A DNA stretch of 64,000 bases. Origin: an uncultured Acidobacteriota bacterium (GTDB taxonomy: Bacteria; Acidobacteriota; Thermoanaerobaculia; Gp7-AA8). The stretch covers positions 646,603 through 710,602 of the forward strand of contig CAWGEI010000005.1 of assembly GCA_963821585.1 (NCBI GenBank), in the 5' to 3' direction. The notes under the pieces are model-generated. The model was not told the DNA's origin. It ran no database searches and worked only from the letters and a program-made list of their open reading frames with translations. Shown here piece by piece: positions 6,087 to 63,082 of the stretch. How positions within the stretch are numbered: position 1 is the stretch's first letter; every line of letters begins with the position of its first letter. Position numbers and translations under genes: made by a program.

Positions 6087-8195
6087 GTGCCTGGTGGAAA
6101 AGCGCTGCCCCTGCTGAACCGCGAGCTCAGCCGGCTCGACTACAACAGCCGTGTGCTCGAAAAGGCCCGCGATGCGAGCGTGCCCCTGATCGAGCGCCTG
6201 CGCTTCCTCACGTACTGCTCGCGCAACCTCGACGAATTCTTCATGGTCCGCGTCGGCGCGACCCGCGACCTCCTCGACGCCGGCATCACCGAGCGCTCCC
6301 CCGACGGCCTCCTGCCCTCCGAGCAGATGGCCGCGATGCGCCAGCGCACCCGCGAGCTCCTCGACGCCATGTACGGCTGCCTGATCGGCGAGCTCCTGCC
6401 CGAGCTGCGCAGGGAAGGAATCATCGTCGAGAGCTTCCGCGATCTGGGTGCCGAGGAACAGGCGCAACTGACGAAGCTCTTCATCGAGTCCGTCGCGCCC
6501 GTGCTCACCCCCCTGGCCATCGACCCCGGCCATCCGTTCCCGTTCGTCGCCAACCTCGCCCTCAACATCGCCGTGACCGTGGAGTCCGGACGCGGCGAGC
6601 ACGTCGTCCTGTTCAAGATCCCGCCGTCGCTGTCGCACTTCATCCGCGTCGCCGACCAGCGCTTCGTGCCCATCGGGTCGCTCATCGTCGCCCACCTCGA
6701 GCACTTCTTCCCCGCGCTCAAAGTCCGCGGCGCGGTGCTCTTCCGCGCCATCCGCAATTCCGAGCTGAGCATCGACCGCGACGAAGTCGAAGACCTGCGC
6801 GACTCCGTCGAGGCCGAGCTGCGGCGGCGCGAGCGGAAACAGGTCGTCTGCCTGGAGATCGACCGGCGCGCGGACGACGACATCGTGCGTCTCCTCACGG
6901 AAGGTACCCGGGCCCGCGCGGAGGACGTCTACCGCGTGCCCGGCTTTCTCAAGATCAACGACCTCGCCGCCGTCGCGGACGCCGTCGAGACGCACGGCTA
7001 TCCCGAGTTCAATCCCCGCCTTCCGCAGCGCCTCGCGTCCACGGCCGACATCTTCTCCATCGTCCGCGAGCGCGACGTCCTCCTGCACCGCCCGTACGAC
7101 TCCTTCACCGCCATCATCGAGCTGCTGCACGCGTCGGCCACCGATCCCGCGGTCGTCGCCATCAAGCAGACCGTCTACCAGACCGACGAGGAGTCGCCCG
7201 TCATCGACAAGCTCGTCCTCGCGGCGCTGAACGGCAAGCAGGTCACGGTCGTCATCGAGCTGCAGGCGCGCTTCGAGGAGAAGCGCAACATCGCCATGGC
7301 CGCGCGGCTGCAGGAGGCGGGCGCGCAGGTCGTCTACGGCCTGGTCGGGATTCAGGCGCACGCGAAGGTGTGCGTCGTCGTCCGCAGCGAAGACGACGCC
7401 CTGCGGCACTACGTCCACCTCTCGACCGGCAACTACAACGTCGACACCGCGCGCGCGTACTCGGACCTCGACCTCCTCACCGCGCACGAGGAGCTGGGTC
7501 GCGACGCGTCGCAGCTCATCAACATGCTCACCGGCTTCAGCGCCGCCAGCCTTGCCAGCGGCAAGCCGCAGTGGAAGCACTTCCTCGTCGCGCCGTTCGA
7601 CCTGCAGCGCGCGCTCATCGCCAAGATCGAGCGCGAGGCGAAGCACGCCAAAGACGGGAAGCCCGCGCGCATCGCCGGGAAGGTGAACTCGCTCGTCGAT
7701 CCAACCGTCATCGACGCCCTGTACCGCGCCGCCGACGCCGGCGTGCAGATCGACCTCGTCGTCCGCGCCATCTGCTCGCTCGTCCCCGGCGGGAACATCC
7801 GGGTAATGTCCGTCGTCGACCGCTACCTCGAGCACTCGCGCATCGTCCGCTTCGAGAACGGCGGCGCGCCCGAGGTCTATCTCTCCAGCGGCGACTGGAT
7901 GCCGCGCAACTTCACCCGGCGCGTCGAGGTGATGTTTCCTCTGCTCGACGCCACCGCCCGCGAGCACGCCGAACAGATCCTCGACCTCACCCTCCAGGAC
8001 GGCGCCTCCTCCTGGGACCTCCAGCCCGACGGCACCTGGAAGCGCCGCAGCGGCGGCCTCTCCAGCCAGCAGCGCTTCATCGACATCACCCGCGCCGAGG
8101 CTGTTTCACTGGGCGACTATGACGAGTCGATCGAGCAGGCTTCGAAGATTCGCCGGAAGGCGAAGCGGAAGAAGACGCCCGCGCGATCTCGATGA
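6087..8195 (+). CDS. ppk1: polyphosphate kinase 1 (copy a)
   Basis: 702 aa. LLNRELSRLDYNSRVLE N-terminus, RNLDEFFMVRV, and two PLD-like HxK regions (IQAHAKVCVV, LEHSRIV). Confidence 0.9.
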   Translation: MPGGKALPLLNRELSRLDYNSRVLEKARDASVPLIERLRFLTYCSRNLDEFFMVRVGATRDLLDAGITERSPDGLLPSEQMAAMRQRTRELLDAMYGCLIGELLPELRREGIIVESFRDLGAEEQAQLTKLFIESVAPVLTPLAIDPGHPFPFVANLALNIAVTVESGRGEHVVLFKIPPSLSHFIRVADQRFVPIGSLIVAHLEHFFPALKVRGAVLFRAIRNSELSIDRDEVEDLRDSVEAELRRRERKQVVCLEIDRRADDDIVRLLTEGTRARAEDVYRVPGFLKINDLAAVADAVETHGYPEFNPRLPQRLASTADIFSIVRERDVLLHRPYDSFTAIIELLHASATDPAVVAIKQTVYQTDEESPVIDKLVLAALNGKQVTVVIELQARFEEKRNIAMAARLQEAGAQVVYGLVGIQAHAKVCVVVRSEDDALRHYVHLSTGNYNVDTARAYSDLDLLTAHEELGRDASQLINMLTGFSAASLASGKPQWKHFLVAPFDLQRALIAKIEREAKHAKDGKPARIAGKVNSLVDPTVIDALYRAADAGVQIDLVVRAICSLVPGGNIRVMSVVDRYLEHSRIVRFENGGAPEVYLSSGDWMPRNFTRRVEVMFPLLDATAREHAEQILDLTLQDGASSWDLQPDGTWKRRSGGLSSQQRFIDITRAEAVSLGDYDESIEQASKIRRKAKRKKTPARSR

Positions 8196-10203
8196 ACCGC
8201 TGCTGGCTGCGGATCGCGTTCGCACGCGCCTTCCGCCGCCGGTACGTCCCGTCCGGCTGCAGCCGCCAGCCCTTCGCCTCGTCGGCCAGGCACGTGCCCA
8301 GGATCTGCAGCTCGATGCGGTCGCGCAGCTGCGGCGAGAGCACCGGCCACGTCACCTCCATCCGCCGGAAGAAGTTGCGCGGCATCCAGTCGCCGCTCGC
8401 GGCGTAGACCTCCGTCGCCCCGCCGTTGCGGAACAGGAAGATCCGCGAGTGCTCGAGAAAGCGGTCGATCACCGACAGCACGCGGATGTTCTCCCGCGGC
8501 ACGAGACAGCAGATCCCGCGGACGATCAGGTCGATCTTCACCCCCGCGTCCGCCGCGCGGTAGAGCGCCTCGATGACGGCCGGGTCGACGAGTGAGTTCA
8601 TCTTCGCGATGATCTGCGCCGGACGCTTCTCCCGCGCGTGCTTCGTCTCGCGCTCGATCATCCGCAGCGTCCACGCGTGATACTCCATCGGCGCGACCAC
8701 GAGCTTCCGCCACCGCCAGTCGCGCGAGTGGCTGGCGAAGATCTCCTGCGCAGTCTCCGCGCTGTACCCCGTGATCAGGTTCAGCAGCTGCGACGCATCC
8801 TCGGCGATCTGCGCGTCCGCCGTGAGCAGGTCGATGTCCGTGTACAGCCGCGCCGTCTTCGCGTTGTAGTTGCCCGTCGAGAGATGGACGTAGCGCCGCA
8901 GCTCGCCTCCTTCGCGACGAATGACCAGGCAGATCTTCGAGTGCGTCTTGATGCCCACCAGGCCGTACACCACCTGCACTCCGGCCTCCTCGAGGCGCCG
9001 CGCCCAGGCGATGTTGCGCTCCTCGTCGAAGCGGGCCTGCAGCTCGACGATGGCCGCAACCTGCTTCCCTTTCTCGGCCGCGCGCGCCAGTGCTTCGACG
9101 ACCACCGAGCCCGGCTCCGTGCGATAGAGCGTCTGCTTGATGGCGATGACGTCCGGATCGTCCGCCGCGCTCTGCACGAACTCGACGACCGCCGTGTACG
9201 CGTCGTACGGCCGGTGTAGCAGGATGTCGCCGGCGCGAATGATCGAGAAGATGTCGTCGCGCGTCGCCAGCTCCGCGGGGATGCGCGGGTTGAACGGCTC
9301 GTCCTTCAGCGAGCCGTCGATACGCCCGTGGATCTCGATGAGATCGCCGACTTTCGGCAGCGCGGGGGTGAGGAAGACGTCGTCGCGCACGACGTCGAGC
9401 TCGCGCTGCAGCAGCGCCAGCATCTCGTCGCTGGCGGTCTTCGCGACCTCCATCCACACCACTTCCTTCCGCTCGCGCATCCGCAGCTCGGTCTCGACGG
9501 ACTTGAGCAGGTCCTGGACCTCGTCTTCGCGCAGGGCGATGTCGGCGTTGCGCATCACGCGGAACGGCACGACCTCGCGCACGTCCAGTCCGGGAAAGAA
9601 ATACGACGCGTGCAGGCGGATCACCTCTTCGACGGGCACGAAGCGCCGCGGGGCGATGGCCACGAAGCGCGGCAGCGACTTCGGGATCTTGATGAATGCG
9701 GTGTACGTCTCGACGCCGCTGGCCAGCCTCACCGCGAGGTTGAGCGAGCCGCTGGCGAGGAACGGCAGCGGATGCCCTGGATCGACCGCGAGCGGCGTGA
9801 GGATCGGCGCCACCCGCGTCTGGAACTCCTCGGCGATCGCCGCCTGCTGCTTCTTCGTCAGCGCGCTGGCGGGGACGATGCGCACGCCCGCGGTCTCGAG
9901 CCGCGGCAGCAGCACGTCCAGGACGCGGTACATGTCGCGCTGCAGCGCCTTCACCTTCTCGCGGATGGCCTTGAGCTGCTGCTTCGGCGTGAGGCCGTCC
10001 ATGGAGCGCTCGCGGATGCCGTTGTCGATCAGCCGCCGGATGCCGCCCACGCGCACCATCAGGAACTCGTCGAGGTTCATGGCGGTGATGCTGAGAAACT
10101 TCGCCCGCTCCAGCAGCGGCACATCCCCACTCTCCGCCTCGGCCAGCACCCGGCGATTGAACTCGAGCCAGCTCAGCTCGCGATTGAAGAGAGGGAGGTC
10201 CAC
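8086..10203 (-). CDS. ppk1: polyphosphate kinase 1 (copy b, diverged paralogue)
   Basis: Track ORF 8086..10257. A GTG at 10203 (VDLPLFNRELSWLEFNRRVLAE) avoids reading through hairpin E1. By eye, about half the residues are identical to copy a. The 3' end overlaps copy a by 110 nt. Confidence 0.9.
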   Translation of the reverse strand: MDLPLFNRELSWLEFNRRVLAEAESGDVPLLERAKFLSITAMNLDEFLMVRVGGIRRLIDNGIRERSMDGLTPKQQLKAIREKVKALQRDMYRVLDVLLPRLETAGVRIVPASALTKKQQAAIAEEFQTRVAPILTPLAVDPGHPLPFLASGSLNLAVRLASGVETYTAFIKIPKSLPRFVAIAPRRFVPVEEVIRLHASYFFPGLDVREVVPFRVMRNADIALREDEVQDLLKSVETELRMRERKEVVWMEVAKTASDEMLALLQRELDVVRDDVFLTPALPKVGDLIEIHGRIDGSLKDEPFNPRIPAELATRDDIFSIIRAGDILLHRPYDAYTAVVEFVQSAADDPDVIAIKQTLYRTEPGSVVVEALARAAEKGKQVAAIVELQARFDEERNIAWARRLEEAGVQVVYGLVGIKTHSKICLVIRREGGELRRYVHLSTGNYNAKTARLYTDIDLLTADAQIAEDASQLLNLITGYSAETAQEIFASHSRDWRWRKLVVAPMEYHAWTLRMIERETKHAREKRPAQIIAKMNSLVDPAVIEALYRAADAGVKIDLIVRGICCLVPRENIRVLSVIDRFLEHSRIFLFRNGGATEVYAASGDWMPRNFFRRMEVTWPVLSPQLRDRIELQILGTCLADEAKGWRLQPDGTYRRRKARANAIRSQQRFIEIARASSSASPSGESSKPARSTRHSRPVKQPRRG

Positions 10204-10220
10204 GCCGGAGAAGCATAACG

Positions 10221-10304
10221 GTTGACAGTTGGCAGTTGACAGTCGACAGGAGATCAACTTCAGCGCGCTCCTCTCCTGTCAACTGCCAACTGTCGACTGT
10301 CAAC
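10221..10304. repeat. heptamer-armed hairpin E1 (CAGTTGR family)
   Basis: Left arm GTTGACAGTTGGCAGTTGACAGTCGACAGG. Right arm CCTGTCAACTGCCAACTGTCGACTGTCAAC. Lies between the divergent ppk1b and MFS starts. Confidence 0.85.
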
Positions 10305-12901: not shown

Positions 12902-12971
12902 GCCGTTGCCCGTTGCCCGTTGCCCGTCTGTCCAGGCCACGGGCCACGGGCCACGGGTCACGGGTCACGAC
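12902..12971. repeat. heptamer-armed hairpin E6 (CCCGTTG / CCACGGG family)
   Basis: CCGTTGCCCGTTGCCCGTTGCCCGTCTGTCC - AGG - CCACGGGCCACGGGCCACGGGTCACGGGTCACGAC. The arms pair with one or two mismatches per heptamer. Confidence 0.8.
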
Positions 12972-19428: not shown

Positions 19429-19869
19429 CGGAGCGTGACCAGACGATTTCGGAGCGCAACGACATGCCCCGGAAGCGGACGGCGTGCCCGCGGAGGGCGA
19501 CAGCACCCTCTAGGAGCGTAACAACACGCCCTTTGAGCGTAACAGCGCGCCTTTTGAACGTGATGTTACGCCTGTGGAGCGTAACGTTACGCCCGCGGAG
19601 CGTAGCGTTACGCCTGAAAGGCGTGTTGTTACGCTCGAAGGGCGTGTTGTTACGCTCAAAAGGTGTGGTGTTACGCTCAAAGAGCGTGTTGTTACGCTCC
19701 GGAGGCATGTCGTTGCGCTCGAAAGGTACGGAATCACGCCCGCGGAGCCTGCACACGTGCCCGGGAAACGTGCGGTTACGCCCGCGGGGCACGGACTCGC
19801 GCCCGATTCGCGTGGAGTTGCGCCCGCCGGCGACGGACTCCCGCCCAAATCGCGCGTGCGCGTCCGCCG
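19429..19869. repeat. array of 21 tandem ~21-bp units with GCGTAAC|GTTACGC core, globally an imperfect dyad centred at 19584/19585
   Basis: Unit starts: 19429, 19450, 19471, 19491, 19512, 19533, 19555, 19575, 19596, 19619, 19640, 19661, 19682, 19701, 19723, 19743, 19764, 19785, 19807, 19828, 19849. Left units are GAGCGTAACAACACGCC type and right units are its reverse complement. Five track ORFs in different frames run through it. Confidence 0.9.
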
Positions 19870-23037: not shown

Positions 23038-23877
23038 CGACGATGGAATGTCACAGCGACTCCTGCAACCGAGACGTGACCCCGCCGTCCGCCCCGCCGC
23101 GATCACCGCACCGCCGTCGACGGTGAAGATCGAAGTCCGCGACTTCAACTTCTATCTACGGCGAGAGCAAGGTGCTGCACGGAATCACCCTCGACATCCC
23201 GGAGAACCAGGTCACCGCGCTGATCGGCCCGTCGGGTTGCGGCAAGTCGACGTTCCTCCGCTCCATCAACCGGATGAACGACATCATCCCGGGCGCGCGC
23301 GGCGAGGGCCGGATCGCCATCGGCGGGCAGGACGTCTACGCGCCCGGCGTCGACGTCGTGCGCGCTGCGCCGCCGCGTGGGGATGGTCTTCCAGAAGCTC
23401 CAACCCGTTCCCGAAGTCGATCTACGAGAACGTCGCCTACGGACTGCGCATCGGCGGCGACGAAGGACCGGCGCGTCCTCGACGAGACCGTCGAGCGCTC
23501 GCTGCAGCCGCGCGGCGTTGTGGGACGAGGTGAAGGACCGCCTCAACGCCAGCGCGCTCGCGCTCTCCGGCGGCCAGCAGCAGCGCCTCTGCATCGCGCG
23601 CGCACTGGCGGTCGACCCCGACGTCCTGCTGATGGACGAGCCGGCGTCGGCGCTCGACCCGATCGCCACGCAGAAGATCGAGGAGCTGGTCTACGAGCTC
23701 AAGGACAACTACACGATCGTGATCGTCACCCACAACATGCAGCAGGCCGCGCGCGTCTCCGACCGCACCGCCTTCTTCATGCTCGGCAAGCTCGTGGAGT
23801 ACGACGAAACGCGTACGATCTTCATGAATCCGAAGCAGAAGCTGACCGAGGATTACATTACGGGAAGGTTTGGCTGA
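23034..23877 (+). pseudogene. pstB: pstB ATPase, at least 5-6 frame shifts
   Basis: Segments follow ORF 23048 -> 23172 -> 23377 -> 23048 -> 23172 -> 23377, which is five successive +1 shifts. The segments are [10 protein letters not shown] / [30 protein letters not shown] / VGMVFQK / [15 protein letters not shown] / [12 protein letters not shown] / ALWDEVKD...[16 protein letters not shown]... Confidence 0.85.
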
Positions 23878-23881
23878 ACAA

Positions 23882-23964
23882 GTCCTGAGTGCTGAGTCCT
23901 GAGTGCTGAGTCCCGCCCACCCGGGGACTCTTACTCAGGACTCAGGACTCAGGACTCAGGACTA
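23882..23964. repeat. heptamer-armed hairpin E5 (TCCTGAG/TGCTGAG family)
   Basis: AGTCCTGAGTGCTGAGTCCTGAGTGCTGAGTCCC - GCCCACCC - GGGGACTCTTACTCAGGACTCAGGACTCAGGACTCAGGACT. Lies between the pstB stop and the phoU start. Confidence 0.85.
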
Positions 23965-23969
23965 ATTGA

Positions 23970-24639
23970 ATGCGCCATTTCGACAGAGAAATCGAACACC
24001 TCAAAGAGCTCCTGCTGCGCATGGGAGCGATGGTCGAGGACTCAGATCAACGAGTCCATCCGGGCGCTGCTCGAGCGCGACACGGCGGTGGCGCAGCGCG
24101 TCATCGACGGCGACACGGCCATCGACCAGATGGAGCTGGAGATCGACCAGCACACCATCGAGCTCATCGCCATGATGCAGCCGGCCGCGGTCGACCTGCG
24201 CTTCGTGGCCGCGGCCATGAAGATCACGCCGGAGCTGGAGCGCGATCGCCGACCTGGCCGTCGACGTCTGCGAGCGCGCCATCGAGCTCAATCGCGAGCC
24301 GCCGCTCAAGCCGCTGCATCGACATCCCGCGCCTCGCGCGCATCTCGCAGGACATGGTGCGGCCAGGCGCTCGACGCCTTCGTCCGCCGCGATGCCGTGC
24401 TGGCGCGCGAAGTCATCGCCCGCGACGACGAGGCCGACCTGCTCACCGAGCAGTCGTTCCGCGAGCTGCTGACGTACATGCTCGAAGACTCGCGCAACAT
24501 CTCCCGCGCCATCCGCCTCACGTTCATCGGCAAGTACTTCGAGCGGATGGCCGACGGCGCCACCAACATCTGTGAGATGGTCGTCTACCTCGCCGAAGGA
24601 AAAGTGATCAAGCACAGCGGTGATCGAGTACAACCATGA
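23970..24639 (+). pseudogene. phoU: phoU, four +1 frame shifts
   Basis: MRHFDREIEHLKELLLRMGAMVED (ORF 23970), then INESIRALLERDTAVAQRVIDGDTAIDQMELEIDQ (ORF 24088), then IADLAVDVCERAIELNREPP (third frame), then IDIPRLARISQDMV (ORF 23970), then QALDAFVRRD...FIGKYFERMADGATNICE (ORF 24088). Confidence 0.85.
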
Positions 24640-25321
24640 GCCGGCCTGAGCTACGTGTCGCGGTGATCGAGGACGACGCGGACATCGCGTTCACGATCCG
24701 CGTCAACCTGGAGCGCGAAGGCTACGCCGTCCGCGTCGTACCAGAACGGCCACGAGGGCCTGCTCGCCGTGCAGCAGGGCGGCTTCGACTTCCTGATCCT
24801 CGATCTGAATCTTCCCGACCTCGACGGCTTCACCATCTGCCGCGAGCTGCGCCGCCATCCCGCGACGTCCAAGCTGCCGATCCTCATGCTCACCGCGCGG
24901 ACGTCCGAGGCGGACCGGATCATGGGACTGGAGCTCGGGGCGGACGACTACCTGGTGAAACCGTTCAGCGTCCGCGAGCTCCTGGCGCGCGTCGCCGCGA
25001 TCCTCCGCCGCGCCAAAGGCACCGAGGCCGACCCCGCCGTCTACGACGACGGCCACCTCCGCATCGACGGCCGCACGCATGCGCGTGTACGTCGAAGGCG
25101 AGGAAGTGAAGCTGGCCAAGAAAGAGCTGGAGCTGTTGTGGATGCTCGTCCGCAACCGCCCCGCGGTCGTCTCGCGCGACCGCATCCTGTCCGAGGTGTG
25201 GCAGGTGGCGGAGGACGTGGAGACCCGGACCGTCGACGCGCACATCCGCAACCTGCGCAAGAAGATCGGCAAGGATCGGATCCAGACGGTGATCGGCTAT
25301 GGTTACCGGTTCGAAGAGTAG
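24636..25321 (+). pseudogene. phoB: phoB-type OmpR-family response regulator, two +1 frame shifts
   Basis: [26 protein letters not shown] (ORF 24636), then [23 protein letters not shown]...LMLTARTSE...[10 protein letters not shown] (ORF 24769), then [14 protein letters not shown]...[15 protein letters not shown]...GYGYRFEE (ORF 25079). Confidence 0.85.
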
Positions 25322-25413
25322 TTGCAGTTACAGTTGGCAGTTACAGCTAGAGCTATTCAGCAAGCCCTTGTCGGCTTCCTCGGTAGCTGTACAACTGCCA
25401 ACTGTCATACTGC
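25321..25413. repeat. heptamer-armed hairpin E2 (CAGTTRC/CAGTTGG family)
   Basis: GTTGCAGTTACAGTTGGCAGTTACAGCTA ... TAGCTGTACAACTGCCAACTGTCATACTGC. Lies between the phoB stop and the phoR start. Confidence 0.8.
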
Positions 25414-25434
25414 TCACAGCTGAACAGTCCTCCC

Positions 25435-26738
25435 ATGCACCCCCTGCGCGTCCTCCTCTACGCCTCGCTCGTGCTCGCCATCGCGGTCGCGTGGGGCTGT
25501 TGGCTGCGGCGTTGCTGAAGCCGGCATGCCGCACTCGGCCGCGACCTGCTGGCGGGGCGCGTTCGTCGTGTTCCTGCTGCCGTGGACGGGGGTGTTCCTC
25601 TGGGCGTCCGCCGTGCGTCCGATCTCGACGAGCTCACCGACGCGCGTGCGCGTGAGAGGCTGGGCGCCGATCGCCGACCGCACGTATCACGGCGAGCTGG
25701 ACGACCTCGCGCGCTCGATCGAGGAGTTGCGGGCCACGATCGCAGGCGGCGCCTGCGCCGCGCCACGAGAGCACCGCGCCGCGATGGACGAGATCGTCTG
25801 CGCCCTCGGCGAAGGGTTGCTCGCGGTGAGCCCGAGGGGCGGGTCGGCGTTCGCGAACCGCCGGTTGGCCGAGATGTTCGGCGGTGAGCCGGGAGATGGT
25901 CGGCCAGTCGGTCCTGGAGGTCGTGCGCAAGCAGTCCGTCGCGGCGGCGCATCGAACAAGGCGCTGCACGGGGAGACGTCGACGGAGCGCGTGACGTACG
26001 ACGACCGGAAGATCGAAGTCCGCGCGTTCCCGGCCGTCGCGTCGCCGGACATCGCGGCGGTCGCGCTCTTCATCGACGTCACGCGCATCGAGCGGCTGCA
26101 GCAGCGTGCGGAAGGAGTTCCTCGACGACTTCTCGCACGAGGTGCGCACGCCGCTGGCGGGACTCAAGTCGGCCGCCGAGACACTCGAGCACGGCGGCCT
26201 GACCCGCGAGCACGAGCAGCAACTGCGTCACGTCATGCAGCGGCAGATCGTGCGCATCGAGCGCCTGGTGAGCGACCTCTCGGAGCTGAACCAGATCGAG
26301 ATCCGGCGAGCTCGTCCTGCAGCGCCGCGAGGTGAACCTGCGCGACCTGATGCTCGAGCTGTGCGAGGACTTCAGGCAGCCAGGTCGAAGCGCGCCGGCG
26401 GCCGCGTCATCGACCTCGAGCCCGCGCGCAGCAGATCTTCACGAACCTCCTCGACAACGCCTGCAAGCACGGCGGCGCGGCGGGTGCGGTGTCGGTGGAG
26501 CTGGCCTCCGAAAACGGCGATGCGGTCGTGCGCGTGTCGGACGAGGGGCCGGGCATCCCGCCGCACGAACTGGAGCGGGTCTTCAACCGCTTCTATCGCG
26601 TCGACCGCAGCCGCTCGCAGCCCGGCACCGGCCTCGGCCTCGCGATCGCCAAGCACCTCGTCGTGGCCCACGGCGGCTCGATCCGGGCGTTCAACCGGTC
26701 AGGGAAGGGGCGCGACGTTCGAGGTCAGGCTTCCGTAG
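25435..26738 (+). pseudogene. phoR: phoR-type sensor histidine kinase, about 8-10 frame shifts
   Basis: The TM segments, HAMP-like GELDDLARSIEEL, a PAS-like part, the H-box FLDDFSHEVRTPLAGLKSAAETL (ORF 26106) and HATPase motifs NLLDNACKHG ... SDEGPGIP...RFYRVDRSRS..GTGLGLAIAKHLV (ORF 26489) lie in different frames. It ends GKGATFEVRLP-stop at 26738. Confidence 0.8.
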
Positions 26739-26762
26739 CGATGGCGTAGAATGCGCCGCTTC

Positions 26763-27388
26763 ATGGCGGCGCTTCAGTTCTCTGATTCCCCGCGAAGAAA
26801 AGTTCTACGACGACTTCAAGCTGTTCGCGGATCAGCTCAAAAAGGGCGCACGCCTGCTCGAGCAGATGCTGGCCGCGGATCCGCCGGAGTGGGACAAGGC
26901 CTATGAGATCAAGGAAGTCGAGCACCAGTGCGACTTCCTGACCCACGAGATCATCCAGCGCCTGAACAAGACCTTCGTCACGCCCATCGACCGCGAGGAC
27001 ATCCATTCGCTCGCCAAGACGCTGGACGACGTCATGGACGAGATGGACAACGCCGCCCACCTGATCCCCCTCTACAAGATCGAGAAGATCCGCGGCGGGG
27101 CGCGGGAGCTGGTCCGGGTGATCCTCGAGCAGAGCGACGAGATCCGCCGGGCGGTCGAGGCGCTGGAGATCCGCGAAAGGCGTGCTCGAGCGTACGATCG
27201 AGATCAACCGCCTCGAAAACGAGGCCGACCGCATCCATAAGGCCGCCATCGGGCTCCTCTTCGACGAGGAGCGGGACCCGATCTCGGTCATGAAGTGGAA
27301 AGAGATCCTGGACGTCCTCGAACGGGCCACCGACCGGTGCGAGGACGTGGCGAACCTGCTGGAGAACGTGGTGGTGAAGCACTCCTGA
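26763..27388 (+). pseudogene. DUF47 (PhoU-related, Pit-accessory-like) protein, at least two +1 frame shifts
   Basis: ATG 26763 is in one frame. SSLIPREEKFYDDFKLFADQLKKGARLLEQML...TPIDREDIHSLAKTLDDVMDEMD is in ORF 26332. GVLERTIEINRLENEADRIHKAAIGLLF...DRCEDVANLLENVVVKHS is in ORF 27182. Confidence 0.75.
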
Positions 27389-27392
27389 CCGG

Positions 27393-27489
27393 AGTTGGCA
27401 GTTGACAGTTGGCGGTTGACAGGAGAGCCCGCCACCCACGGGGAGAGGGCGGGGGCCTCCTGTGAACTGCCAACTGCCGACTGTCAACT
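27393..27489. repeat. heptamer-armed hairpin E3 (CAGTTGR family)
   Basis: AGTTGGCAGTTGACAGTTGGCGGTTGACAGG ... CCTGTGAACTGCCAACTGCCGACTGTCAACT with an inner GC-rich hairpin. Upstream of rpmE. Confidence 0.85.
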
Positions 27490-34116: not shown

Positions 34117-34275
34117 ATGCCCGAGAACAAAGCCCACGAGCTTCTGCGGAAGCACAACCTGACCGTCGACGACGTGAAGGATCGCCGTGCCACGCTCCAT
34201 CACCTTCGCCACATCGTCCATGCCGAGCAGCTTCCGTTCGACGTGTTCAAGGCGCTGGTGAAGATGCGCCGGTAG
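34117..34275 (+). CDS. hypothetical small protein (52 aa)
   Basis: GGGGAG RBS 5 nt before the ATG. MPENKAHELLRKHNLTVDDVKDRRATLHHLRHIVHAEQLPFDVFKALVKMRR. No family recognised. Confidence 0.4.
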   Translation: MPENKAHELLRKHNLTVDDVKDRRATLHHLRHIVHAEQLPFDVFKALVKMRR

Positions 34276-34281
34276 TCCATC

Positions 34282-34370
34282 GACAGTTCACAGTTGGCAA
34301 TTGTCAGGAGAGCCGGGCTGAGCCCGGCTCTTTCATTTTCCTGCCAACTGCCAACTGCCGACTGTCAACG
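34282..34370. repeat. heptamer-armed hairpin E4 (CAGTTSR family) enclosing an intrinsic terminator
   Basis: CGACAGTTCACAGTTGGCAATTGTCAGG ... CCTGCCAACTGCCAACTGCCGACTGTCAAC. The inner AGAGCCGGGC-TGA-GCCCGGCTCT plus TTCATTTT (34308-34340) looks like a Rho-independent terminator. Confidence 0.85.
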
Positions 34371-34390
34371 GTTGTCATAGAATCCACCCG

Positions 34391-36464
34391 ATGCCGTTCC
34401 GCGAAGATGCGAATGCACTGATTCAGCAAAAGAAGTTCGACGATCTCGAGGCCCTCTGGCTCGATCAGATCGAAAAGGACCCCACCGACGCCGACACGTT
34501 CATCAACGCGGCGAAGGCTCTGCGCAAGGCCGAGCAGCGCACGCAGTCGGACACGCTCCTCGGTCTCCTCGCCGACACCCTCAAGGAGCGCAAGCTCTGG
34601 CCACAGCGGCTGCACGTGCTCAAGGAGATCGGCCGCCTCTCGAAGCATCCCGCCACCCTCCGCCCGCAGATCGAAGAAGCTCTCCGCAAATCCCTCGGGG
34701 AGCACAAGAGCTTCGCGCGCACCTTCAAGTTCGCGAACTACGGCGACCCCCAGAGCAATCCCGTCGAGCGCGCCGACAAGATCGAGACCTGGCTCACGTA
34801 CGACGAAGGGGAGTGCTTCTTCATGACCGGCCGCGGCGCGGGACGGGTCACGGAGCTGAATCCGGAGCTCGGCATCTGCCGCCTCGATTTCGAGAACGAC
34901 AAGCGCGTCTCCGTCCCCCTCGGCGCCGCTGCGAAGTACCTCATCCCGCTGCCCGAAGGCCACGTCCTGCGCGAGAAGTTCACCGATCCCGAGGGCGCGA
35001 AGAAGCAGGCGAAAGACTCGCCATCCGAATTCTTCGCGCGCATCCTCCAGAGCTTCGGACGTCCGATGGTGATGCCCGAGGTACGCGACTCCGTCATCGG
35101 CATCGTGCCGGAAGGGAAGTGGAGCACGTGGTGGACGAACGCGCGGAAGAACCCGCAGATCGTCACCAGCGGCACCGGCGCCAAGGCCACCTACGCGTTC
35201 GCGGGATCGAGCTCCGACGCCGAGGCCGTGATCCGGCGCGACTTCGAGCGCGCGGACGTCAAGGCCAAGCTCGACCTCGCGCGGAAGCACTCCGGCCGGA
35301 ACCAGGCCCTCGCAGACACCTTCGCGTCCGCGCTCGCCGGTGAGGCCGGACGCCTGGCGCGCACGGACGCGTCCACCGCGTGGCAGATCCTCGCGACCCT
35401 CGAGTCGCTGCCCGGCAACTTCGAAGCGCCGTTCGAATCCAACGCTCTGCTCATGGGGCCCACGGCCTCGCGCACGGTCTCCGGCATCAACGACAAGGCC
35501 CTGCGCGAGCGCGCGCTCGCGGTCGTGCGTGAGGTCCACGAAGACTGGCCGAAGGTGTACAGCGAGGCGTTCTTCCTCGAATCCGAGCCGCGCTTCCTCA
35601 CCAACATCGTGACGGCCCTCGAAGAAGCGGGCCGTCCGGAGATGCGCGACCGCCTGGTCGACATGACTCTCCGCTACCCGCGGCGCTACCCGCACGCGTT
35701 CTACTGGTACGCGAAACGCCTCGCGGACGACGAGTCGCTCGGCGAGCGCGCGAACTACGCGCTCCTCTTCCAGATCCTCGACGCGCTCACGCACGACGAA
35801 TTCTCCGGAAGCCGCGCGCGGCTCAAGGAGATGTTCGAGAAGGGCGGCCTCGCGGTGCGCATCGTGATGCGCGAGGACAACGAGGAGCAGGCCCGCAAGC
35901 TCGTCGACACGCTCGAACGCTACGGCGCGCTCGAGGAGTACCGCCGCGACATCGTCCGTCAGGCGGCGCTGATGAAGTTTCCGACGCTGCGCGAGCCGCA
36001 GCAGGAGCCGGTGTACGCGACCGCGGAGTCGCTGGAGAAGAAGCGCGGCGAGCTCCAGCACCTCAAGAACGTCGAGATCCCGGCGAACTCGAAGGCGCTG
36101 CAGGCCGCGCGGGAGATGGGCGATCTGCGCGAGAACTTCGAGTACAAGGCCGCGCGGACGCGGGCCGAGTTCCTCTCCGCGCGCGTCGGCGAGCTGGCCT
36201 CCGAGATCTCCCGCGTGCGGGTGCTCGACGCGTCGCAGCTCGATGCGAGCGTCGTGCGCGTCGGGACGAAGGTCGAGCTCTCGAACGGCGACGCCCGCCG
36301 CGAAGTCACGATCCTCGGGCCCTGGGAGTCCGACCCCGAGCGCGGCGTGTACTCGAATCAGTCCGAGGTGGCCGGGCAAGCTCATGGGCCACGCTTCGGG
36401 GGACATCGTGACCTTCATGGGGAACGATTACCAGATCGAGTCCATCCGGAAGTGGAACGAGTGA
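34391..36464 (+). CDS. long GreA/GreB-domain protein (~690 aa) with one +1 frame shift near the 3' end
   Basis: C-terminal GDLRENFEYKAARTRAEFLSARVGELASEISRVRVLD (Gre coiled coil). After a shift at about 36377 (extra G in GCCGGGCAAG) it continues in ORF 36243 frame as KLMGHASGDIVTFMGNDYQIESIRKWNE. The ~560-aa N-terminal region is unassigned. Confidence 0.65.
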
Positions 36465-36509
36465 CGTAAAATGGCGCCCCCTTGACGGGTGCCGGAGGAA
36501 TCGTCCGAG

Positions 36510-62897: not shown

Positions 62898-63082
62898 CTG
62901 TCGCCTGCTACGCAGGCTCGTTGTTGGGTCGCACTGCGTTCCCACGGCTGAAGCCGTGGGCTATTTCCTGCCGCCCGCTTCGCGGGCTTTCTGCTGCCGT
63001 AGGCAGCTTCAGGCAATAGACCCCGGCTTCAGCCGGGGACGGGTGCGTCGCAGGAGATCCAGCCCGCGTCAGCGGGCGACAG
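62898..63082. repeat. A-type element, copy A6
   Basis: CTGTCGCCTGCTACGCAGGCTC ... CCAGCCCGCGTCAGCGGGCGACAG with diverged but collinear inner blocks (compensatory changes within the small hairpins). Confidence 0.85.

Follow-up and report, generated by a model that had tools for sequence, protein, structure and literature searches.

Introduction

Short tandemly repeated repetitive (STRR) sequences with heptamer units have been catalogued since about 1990 and have, to our knowledge, neither an accepted origin nor an accepted function. Hairpins of such 7-bp repeats have been called 'not unusual in filamentous cyanobacteria', where one lies for example between hupS and hupL and another hairpin-forming STRR has been described upstream of hoxW; their function is unknown, with transcript stability, translational coupling and termination among the proposals made (PMC2670836). 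A heptamer of this kind, ttgtcagttgtcagttgtca (CAGTTGT), is tabulated with 44 copies in Nostoc PCC 7120 (PMC2408588). Direct repeats of TAACTGA occur in marine Beggiatoaceae, some Cyanobacteria and Bacteroidetes. A Beggiatoaceae genome holds 169 direct sets and one inverted set, with 2-6 copies per array, and the arrays have been proposed as binding sites for a translational regulator (MacGregor 2015, PMC4679880). Long simple sequence repeats (LSSR) have units of 5-11 nt with heptamers as the most abundant class, and polymerase slippage has been proposed for them, as far as PMC4679880 relays this work (Mrazek 2007). Here, we describe heptamer-armed hairpins in a stretch of 64,000 nt from an uncultured bacterium of the Acidobacteriota (Thermoanaerobaculia; assembly GCA_963821585.1, contig CAWGEI010000005.1, positions 646,603 to 710,602), which we call the window.

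The hairpins of the window belong to this known but unexplained class in a new host lineage and are not a new kind of element. They are labile, lineage-specific repeat palindromes and not one conserved element or regulator site. A first-pass annotation, made from the letters of the window alone, had taken four of them for an undescribed class, which the reports cited above contradict. With STRR they share the tandem 7-bp units, the intergenic position, the many dispersed copies, the formation of hairpins and the location between co-transcribed genes, and the CAGTTGT of Nostoc PCC 7120 is one base away from the CAGTTGR of the window. They differ in the host, which has 65-69% GC and is not a filamentous cyanobacterium, in the predominance of inverted pairs among the arrays of the lineage and in the many unrelated units. 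TAACTGA, which reads CAGTTAT on the other strand, has the same core, is likewise intergenic, often lies just upstream of starts and is patchy across phyla, and one locus of the window (locus 2 below) holds CAGTTAC units close to it; however, TAACTGA forms direct arrays, whereas the arrays of the window are paired into hairpins. The likeness to LSSR lies in the spectrum of periods, here 7 far above 8 and then 9. The LSSR description, in the part that is relayed, deals with direct tandem tracts, and the pairing of complementary tracts around a centre does not belong to it. For the units CCTGAGT and GCCCGTT no match was found in the literature compared, to which the original STRR1-3 catalogue did not belong, and when the literature was searched for the repeat strings themselves, only unrelated primer matches came up.

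Results

Hairpins in the window

Six heptamer-armed hairpins, every one of them intergenic, lie in the 64 kb, together with one inverted pair of longer arrays. All seven elements are found at 10-34 kb amid phosphate-related genes, and the remaining 40 kb of the window are without any. They are given here with two signals that belong to the fourth locus; dG values are in kcal/mol.

10221-10304, no strand: hairpin 1 (RNA dG -51.9, z -10.4). Left arm GTTGACA GTTGGCA GTTGACA GTCGACA, centre GGAGATCAACTTCAGCGCGCTCCTCTCC, right arm TGTCAAC TGCCAAC TGTCGAC TGTCAAC; in the 145-nt spacer from the ppk start (GTG, 10203, minus strand) to the MFS start (ATG, 10349).
12903-12969, no strand: heptamer-armed hairpin with another unit, GCCCGTT / CACGGGC (dG -42.9, z -3.3). 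(CCGTTGC) x3.6, a loop of 5 nt and (GGCCACG/GGTCACG) x5, with 6/7 positions paired per unit; about 40 nt upstream of the second MFS gene.
19479-19727, no strand: inverted pair of 21-nt tandem arrays (DNA fold -80.9 kcal/mol, z -13.1). About 5 units of GAGCGTAACAACACGCCCTTT and then about 5 units of the reverse complement, with a period of 21 (3x7) and the architecture of the heptamer hairpins. Arms of 102-114 nt with 71-75% complementarity, several possible registers, an imperfect palindrome of about 100 bp; from an AraC-family gene to the pst operon. Several open frames run through it, with codon third positions that are not GC-rich.
23881-23963, no strand: heptamer-armed hairpin, AGTCCTG / ACTCAGG (dG -61.8, z -8.8). 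Left arm AGTCCTG/AGTGCTG alternating (a 14-nt super-unit), right arm ACTCAGG x4.4; from the pstB stop (TGA, 23875-23877) to the phoU start (ATG, 23970).
25321-25413, no strand: hairpin 2 (dG -44.8, z -5.7). Degenerate arms AGTTGC AGTTAC AGTTGGC AGTTAC ... CAACTGC CAACTGT, with the phoB stop codon inside the first unit; from the phoB stop (TAG, 25319-25321) to the phoR start (ATG, 25435).
27393-27489, no strand: hairpin 3 (dG -73.1, z -10.2), with a GC-rich inner hairpin. Arms AGTTGGC AGTTGAC AGTTGGC GGTTGAC / GAACTGC CAACTGC CGACTGT CAACT; from the stop of the DUF47 (PhoU_div) gene (27386-27388) to the rpmE promoter and start (ATG, 27548).
34282-34370, no strand: hairpin 4 (dG -53.6, z -8.2). 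Degenerate left arm CAGTTCA CAGTTGG CAATTGT CAGG, right arm CTGCCAA CTGCCAA CTGCCGA CTGTCAA; from the stop of a small open reading frame (ORF) (TAG, 34273-34275) to the GreA-like gene (ATG, 34391).
34307-34340, plus strand: terminator-like inner hairpin of locus 4, GGAGAGCCGGGCTGAGCCCGGCTCTTT followed by CATTTTC; 12 pairs, 8 of them GC, and a T-rich tail.
34378-34383, plus strand: -10-like box TAGAAT, which abuts the right arm of hairpin 4 and ends 7 nt before the ATG of the GreA-like gene; context and not repeat.

The repeats stand far above the background of this DNA. With one mismatch at most, the degenerate two-unit pattern CAGTYGRCAGTYGR has 17 matches in the window, all within the loci of hairpins 1 to 4, where 0.45 would be expected; the maximum in 100 dinucleotide shuffles was 2. 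Tandem Repeats Finder and a separate period scan yielded 6 tandem runs of period 7 against 0.15 expected, and the period scan found none at periods 8-12 in the window. As RNA, loci 1 to 4 fold with dG -44.8 to -73.1 kcal/mol; their z values lie between -5.7 and -10.4, with 0/200 shuffles as stable. For the six heptamer hairpins together the range is -43 to -73 kcal/mol (z -3.3 to -10.4).

Loci 1 to 4 are those of the first-pass annotation. Their positions read as described there, as do the different order of variants in the two arms and the gene context (ppk/MFS divergent, response regulator/HisKA kinase, DUF47/rpmE, small ORF/GreA-like), for which we relied on Pfam and tblastn anchors; the Pfam scan comprised 30 ORFs of the window, and GC at third codon positions did not separate the frames in this 67% GC DNA. 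The proposed common architecture of heptamer arms stands for the four stable hairpins as such, but degenerate repeats, with mixed 6/7-nt units that our strict paired-array detector left unpaired, make up locus 2 and the left arm of locus 4. An inner bracket CAGGAGA...TCTCCTG had been claimed for three of the four loci and is exact in locus 1 only, as CAGGAGA is answered by CCTCCTG in locus 3 and by TTTCCTG in locus 4. The arms had also been said to pair in several registers. This applies to hairpins 1-3, in which arms shifted by +/-7 nt still pair with -22 to -43 kcal/mol while a shift of +/-3 nt is unfavourable; in hairpin 1 the shifted pairing has -35.3 kcal/mol compared with -37.6 in register. 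Hairpin 4, with its degenerate left arm and unequal arm lengths, gave no result in this test. Finally, the set of four was not complete, since the window adds 12903-12969, 23881-23963 and the 21-nt version at 19479-19727.

The same junctions in relatives

The hairpins are lineage-specific additions to their junctions, which are present, absent or different between close relatives. The best matches of the polyphosphate kinase (PPK) are 86-96% identical and come from metagenome-assembled genomes (MAGs) of Thermoanaerobaculia. We compared four ppk contigs (L120-L123) and, from soil metagenomes, the surroundings of the cyanophycin-synthetase-like gene at 80 loci (L124-L203), with the junctions anchored by tblastn of terminal peptides. 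L124, which is among the closest relatives found and has a PhoB tail 100% identical to that of the window, carries no insert at pstB|phoU or phoB|phoR. Its pstB and phoU overlap in ATGA, and no nucleotide separates its phoB TAG from the phoR ATG; where these stops and starts overlap or abut, the window has inserts of 92-113 nt. The ppk-MFS spacer is empty in L122 (51 nt) and L123 (40 nt) compared with 145 nt in the window. When filled and empty versions of ppk-MFS, pstB|phoU and phoB|phoR were compared, any direct duplication could be put down to the needs of stop and start codons, and the ends differ between alleles.

Filled junctions have the architecture in common, and their unit sequences can replace one another. 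The arms at pstB|phoU are CCTGAGT in the window, GGGATGA in L138 and GGTTGCT in L141, those at phoB|phoR are CAGTTRS, GAGAATT and CTGGTTG in the same order, and the relatives with these unrelated units have a PhoB C-terminus that is 96-100% identical. At DUF47|rpmE most relatives have a Pit-like gene of about 1 kb, the window and L124 have hairpins with different units (CTGGTTG-type arms in L124), and L138 has a 50-nt spacer. The Pit-like phosphate transporter gene (L125, L127, L133, L141 and others), which the window, L124 and L138 lack, starts in a TGATG overlap. At small ORF|greA-like the unit is CAGTTGG in the window, CGGTTGG in L137/L165 and GCAGAGG in L179, and hairpins are also found in L154/155; among about 30 relatives most have bare 19-25-nt spacers or plain GC-rich terminators with a T-run. 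A single four-copy sequence family, as the hairpins had first been described, does not agree with units that are interchangeable both between genomes and within the window.

One locus has its arms around a terminator that was there before them. A GCCGGG...CCCGGC terminator with a T-run is present without arms in L124, L138, L142, L145 and L147, and the same terminator is enclosed by heptamer arms in the window and in L137. Because relatives have it without arms, the terminator of locus 4 belongs to the resident sequence, not to the repeat. The first-pass annotation had recognised this inner hairpin correctly as terminator-like, but it had counted the GC-rich centres as part of the repeated element, and these are local sequence. 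The bare greA-like spacers contain only a TACAAT/TAGAAT box, which is kept in about 30 relatives at 7-11 nt before the GreA-like ATG, whatever fills the spacer.

The ppk-MFS hairpin can be followed further in two relatives. In L121 (9820-9985; GCA_035705925.1, a relative 94% identical) it is expanded, with 5+3 left units compared with 4 in the window and an internal tandem duplication of about 46 nt that comprises arm and centre. The L121 centre matches the window centre better when flipped (ungapped, 26/32 identical, score 20 vs 9). L120 has the right arm alone, beside a rearrangement.

Arms, units and flanking genes

Each arm changes its copy number and its order of variants independently of the other. 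Relatives do differ in both, a comparison to which the first-pass annotation had pointed: copy numbers at the same site differ among L127, L129 and L149, and the order of variants is shuffled between L149 and L187. These differences, and the restriction of the 14-nt super-unit at 23881 to the left arm, argue that the arms slip independently.

Several sites share one unit in some genomes, the window included. Hairpins of one genome have a common unit (at most 1 mismatch) in 9/23 pairs, compared with 7.9% of between-genome pairs, and this was reached by 5/5000 permutations. In L169 three sites share GGCGGAT/GCAGATG and in L141 two share CTGGTTG; no two sites have the same unit in L138, L149 or L164. 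The sharing within genomes therefore indicates some homogenising or spreading process, which exists in some genomes and is not universal.

At 23100-26750 the window genes pstB, phoU (1 shift), phoB (2) and phoR (at least 3) have frame changes compared with the intact orthologues of L124, L138 and L141, and three hairpins of the window flank these genes. Either the pho regulators are locally pseudogenised or there is a local sequence error. An exact-sequence look-up of the window PhoU gave no match because this copy is frameshifted. The ppk gene, the MFS gene, the cyanophycin-synthetase-like gene and the GreA-like gene of the window are intact. L138 and L141 have full-length pstB, phoU, phoB and phoR in a single frame with hairpins present, which rules out that hairpins survive only in dead operons.

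Paired arrays in the lineage and beyond

A unit-agnostic detector, which requires two neighbouring tandem arrays of the same period with arms at least 75% complementary, was applied to 1.12 Mb of Thermoanaerobaculia DNA. It found 41 paired hairpins of period 7 (38 distinct), 8 distinct ones of period 8, 2 of period 9 and 0 of periods 5, 6 and 10-12. Inverted pairs account for 82/126 of the period-7 arrays in the lineage. There are more than 20 distinct units, among them AACTGYC, GAATGTT, CCTCAGT, GGCGGTT, AATTCTT and GGCGGAT as well as CTGCATT, AAGAGTG, GGGATGA, CTGGTTG and CCCGCCG. Over the 38 hairpins the arms have a median of 4.4 copies. The loop has a median of 18.5 nt (range 4-85), and the stems are near-perfect with a median of 33 paired bases. 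The arms are AT-shifted, with a GC of 0.51 compared with 0.635 for the genome. The architecture is seen in dozens of independent JGI, ENA and NCBI assemblies. Octamer-armed hairpins were noted in relatives (L169 3183-3350 and 17328-17419, L175 3670-3829, L152 22008-22102), with CATGAGCC in about 17 copies in one octamer arm, and the architecture is not strictly heptameric.

The pattern CAGTTGRCAGTTGRCAG was scanned across 185,579 species genomes and has at least 119 loci there. Among the matches listed, to which all numbers of this paragraph refer, most loci are from filamentous cyanobacteria, with CAGTTGR abundant in Microcoleus, Richelia, Rivularia and Calothrix; Bacteroidota, Armatimonadota, Planctomycetota, Chloroflexota and Thermoanaerobaculia are the other hosts. 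Under a strict search CAGTYGR arms stand on both sides in 3/119 loci. Direct arrays dominate these cross-phylum loci (360 lone, 34/394 arrays paired), a set that was chosen through a direct-array pattern. The loci contain at least 17 heptamer-armed hairpins of various units, compared with 0 of period 6 and 3 of period 8, and the architecture therefore crosses phyla. Next to start codons, the locus L003 (500-640 and elsewhere) has a CAGTTGG/CAAACTG hairpin and several different heptamer arrays; this contig of 66% GC is labelled as a Streptomycetaceae MAG, a label that may be a binning error.

Signals at the junctions

The stems begin 0-6 nt past a stop codon, and 6-10 nt lie between their ends and the start codon or -10-like box that follows. 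When G-U was weighed against A-C, no strand bias was found, with 17/40 hairpins more stable on the plus strand and 14/40 on the minus strand. The heptamer stems have no T-tract, none was called in a terminator scan, and only the inner hairpin 34307-34340 has the features of an intrinsic terminator. A sigma-70 consensus scan of 23-35 kb called no promoter, the TAGAAT box at 34378-34383 included. A role of the repeats as promoter donors was rejected, as the -35-like TTGACA of the GTTGACA units does not suit the neighbouring -10-like boxes, either in strand or in spacing. No Shine-Dalgarno sequence follows the insert before phoU and phoR. A TATGCT lies 8 nt before the ppk GTG (10203-10217), also without a Shine-Dalgarno sequence, and the spacing of this box and of TACAAT/TAGAAT suggests leaderless transcripts or very short leaders in the lineage.

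Neighbouring genes

The window holds two full-length polyphosphate kinase paralogues, 6087-8195 (plus strand) and 8086-10203 (minus strand), which are convergent with a 3' overlap of about 110 nt; the pair is called likewise in L120 and L121. The GreA-like ORF (34391-36469) encodes 692 aa, in which GreA/GreB N- and C-terminal domains occupy only residues 542-662 and the N-terminal extension of about 540 residues has no Pfam match. Rfam at gathering thresholds assigned no family to any hairpin of the window. Its sole match in the window is an Acido-Lenti-1 RNA (RF01687) at 62941-62988 (plus strand), with 44.7 bits compared with a gathering score of 37.

Discussion

We favour, with some reserve, the view that the hairpins are STRR-type simple sequence repeat (SSR) palindromes in a new lineage, which are born by slippage, mirrored through hairpins and tolerated as fold-outs. 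Arrays would arise and grow by replication slippage in steps of 7 nt. An array beside an existing hairpin, or beside an inverted copy of itself, could then be mirrored by hairpin-templated strand switching, that is by quasi-palindrome correction or fold-back synthesis, and the symmetry might come from strand switching, from selection for self-folding or from both. Recombination between short arms may spread and homogenise a unit among sites and could also flip a centre. Tight junctions might tolerate only inserts that fold on themselves, and a looped-out insert would keep stop and start adjacent in the transcript. Because the stems start and end within a few nt of stop and start, the flanking signals would stay adjacent on folding, and it is from this spacing that we infer tolerance by fold-out. 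Judged from their length, stems of 25-50 bp would likely bring RNase III-type processing, pausing of polymerase or ribosome, or 3'-end protection as side effects.

Several points weigh against this account. Slippage and template switching are processes that we infer from the sequence patterns and have not observed. For the empty sites, gain is weighed against loss by parsimony with no rooted tree, and the fold-out argument ignores that a terminating ribosome would unwind part of the left arm. The absence of a strand bias leaves nothing that points to selection at the RNA level. Only two genomes, those of the window (4 loci) and of L169 (3 loci), carry the signal of unit sharing within genomes. 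Local slippage leaves unexplained why four loci of the window share CAGTTGR arms and the CAGGAG inner unit and why CAGTT-NN recurs across phyla; some spreading process or sequence preference is still needed.

The alternative that survives best, although we consider it unlikely, is that the hairpins are non-autonomous mobile elements akin to miniature inverted-repeat transposable elements (MITEs) or to doublets of repetitive extragenic palindromic (REP) sequences (REPINs). Their arms would be terminal inverted repeats or sites recognised by a transposase or a REP-associated tyrosine transposase (RAYT), with an own family in each genome. The polymorphism of presence and absence with clean empty sites is in line with this, as are the arms and inner CAGGAG...CTCCTG common to four window loci, the units common to three sites in L169 and two in L141, the AT shift of the arms against the genome and, among the matches listed, the occurrence of CAGTTGR in many phyla (compare MacGregor on TAACTGA). 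However, filled and empty sites differ without a target-site duplication. The centres are locus-specific, and since that of locus 4 is the orthologous terminator, the arms must have been added on both sides and not inserted in one piece. Different units at each site in L138, L149 and L164 and the irregular arm lengths and variant orders also speak against mobility, and no transposase domain was found among the 30 window ORFs scanned, a scan that took in the smaller part of the window and nothing else of the genome.

REP elements, the bacterial interspersed mosaic elements (BIMEs) and REPINs resemble our hairpins in being intergenic, hairpin-forming and genome-specific and in filling orthologous spacers differently, and mRNA stabilisation and termination are among the roles proposed for REP-type elements (PMC3733652). 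A REP, however, is a single imperfect palindrome, 20-40 bp long and headed by GTAG or CGTC, which is conserved and recurs across the genome, whereas the window has tandem arrays of a short unit. Across the sites and genomes compared we found no conserved palindrome or unit, the arms being interchangeable 7-mers and the centres locus-specific, and no RAYT, a Y1 HUH transposase, was among the 30 window ORFs scanned with Pfam, a very limited search. Correia-type MITEs of Neisseria are about 100-150 nt long with inverted ends, are intergenic and co-transcribed, and form hairpins that RNase III processes and in which promoter boxes can lie. MITEs of this kind, which PMC4853749 mentions, fold into long RNA hairpins. 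A MITE has fixed ends, a fixed interior and a target-site duplication, whereas the window elements have variable repeat arms, locus-specific centres and no duplication, and with a resident terminator as interior the element at small ORF|greA-like is not one contiguous piece.

Next in order, and again improbable, is that the hairpins are selected intercistronic RNA elements for RNase III cleavage, 3' protection, pausing or attenuation, or re-initiation. This would be compatible with the slippage origin that we favour, and it resembles what has been considered for REP/BIME, Correia elements and cyanobacterial STRR hairpins. The stems, with their median of 33 near-perfect base pairs, are long enough for RNase III and stand exactly between stop and start of co-directional genes, also in intact operons. 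Unrelated units recur at the same junctions, from which it would follow that structure and not sequence is kept. The missing Shine-Dalgarno sequences of phoU and phoR after the insert fit as well, and transcript stability or translational coupling has been proposed in cyanobacteria (PMC2670836). On the other hand, the hairpins are absent in L124 and at the greA-like junction in most relatives and are therefore not required, wobble pairs show no strand asymmetry, the ppk-MFS copy lies in a divergent promoter spacer that need not be transcribed, and three copies of the window flank frameshifted genes. A heptanucleotide SSR is also described in the hmw 5'-UTR of Haemophilus influenzae, where it acts together with an RNase III-targeted RNA element; these heptamers lie between promoter and start, and their tract length alters 5'-UTR structure and RNase III targeting (PMC12721329). 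That tract is a single direct one and serves as a phase-variation switch in a pathogen, whereas the window has paired arms.

More doubtful still is a dedicated, so far unidentified machinery, an enzyme or mobile system that is possibly transferred horizontally, which would write or spread short-unit arrays at hairpins, with the paired arrays adopted in Thermoanaerobaculia as interchangeable intercistronic RNA modules. If this were true, the recurrence of CAGTT-NN in Cyanobacteria, Beggiatoaceae, Bacteroidota, Armatimonadota, Planctomycetota and Acidobacteriota and the sharing of units within genomes would reflect such a machinery. The modules would then separate genes that are coupled in translation and determine the ratio of their expression, through processing of double-stranded RNA or re-initiation across the stem.

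The remaining two ideas are very improbable. The hairpins could be arrays of protein-binding sites, namely Pho boxes, as all seven elements lie amid phosphate genes (ppk, pst, phoU, phoB, phoR, DUF47) and the CTGTCAA unit resembles the E. coli PhoB half-site, CTGTCAT. The period is 7 nt and not the 11-nt phasing of the 7-bp direct repeats in such boxes, and relatives with near-identical PhoB have unrelated units at the same junctions; we rejected the idea on phasing and unit turnover, and the greA-like junction has the CAGTTGR unit too, as have cyanobacteria, Bacteroidota and others, while hairpins of relatives lie at many non-pho sites. As to ordinary intrinsic terminators or an assembly artefact, which the inner hairpin of locus 4 and the frameshifted genes of the window might hint at, the heptamer stems lack a T-tract, have loops of 4-85 nt, were not called by the scan and in two cases separate genes that abut or overlap in L124 and hence look co-transcribed, and the architecture recurs in too many independent assemblies for an artefact.

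In annotation, the elements create spurious ORFs and can pass for terminators or regulator sites. The class now extends to the Acidobacteriota, and what recurs here is the period (7, occasionally 8, 9 or 21) and the pairing, whereas the sequence of the unit hardly matters. The lineage offers filled, differently filled and empty versions of one junction in many close relatives, which the cyanobacterial reports, in the parts cited here, do not describe. This series includes arms around a resident terminator and hairpins that split an overlapping stop/start pair in an intact operon. With it, the origin of the arrays, their symmetry and their relevance to expression become tractable as comparative and experimental problems.

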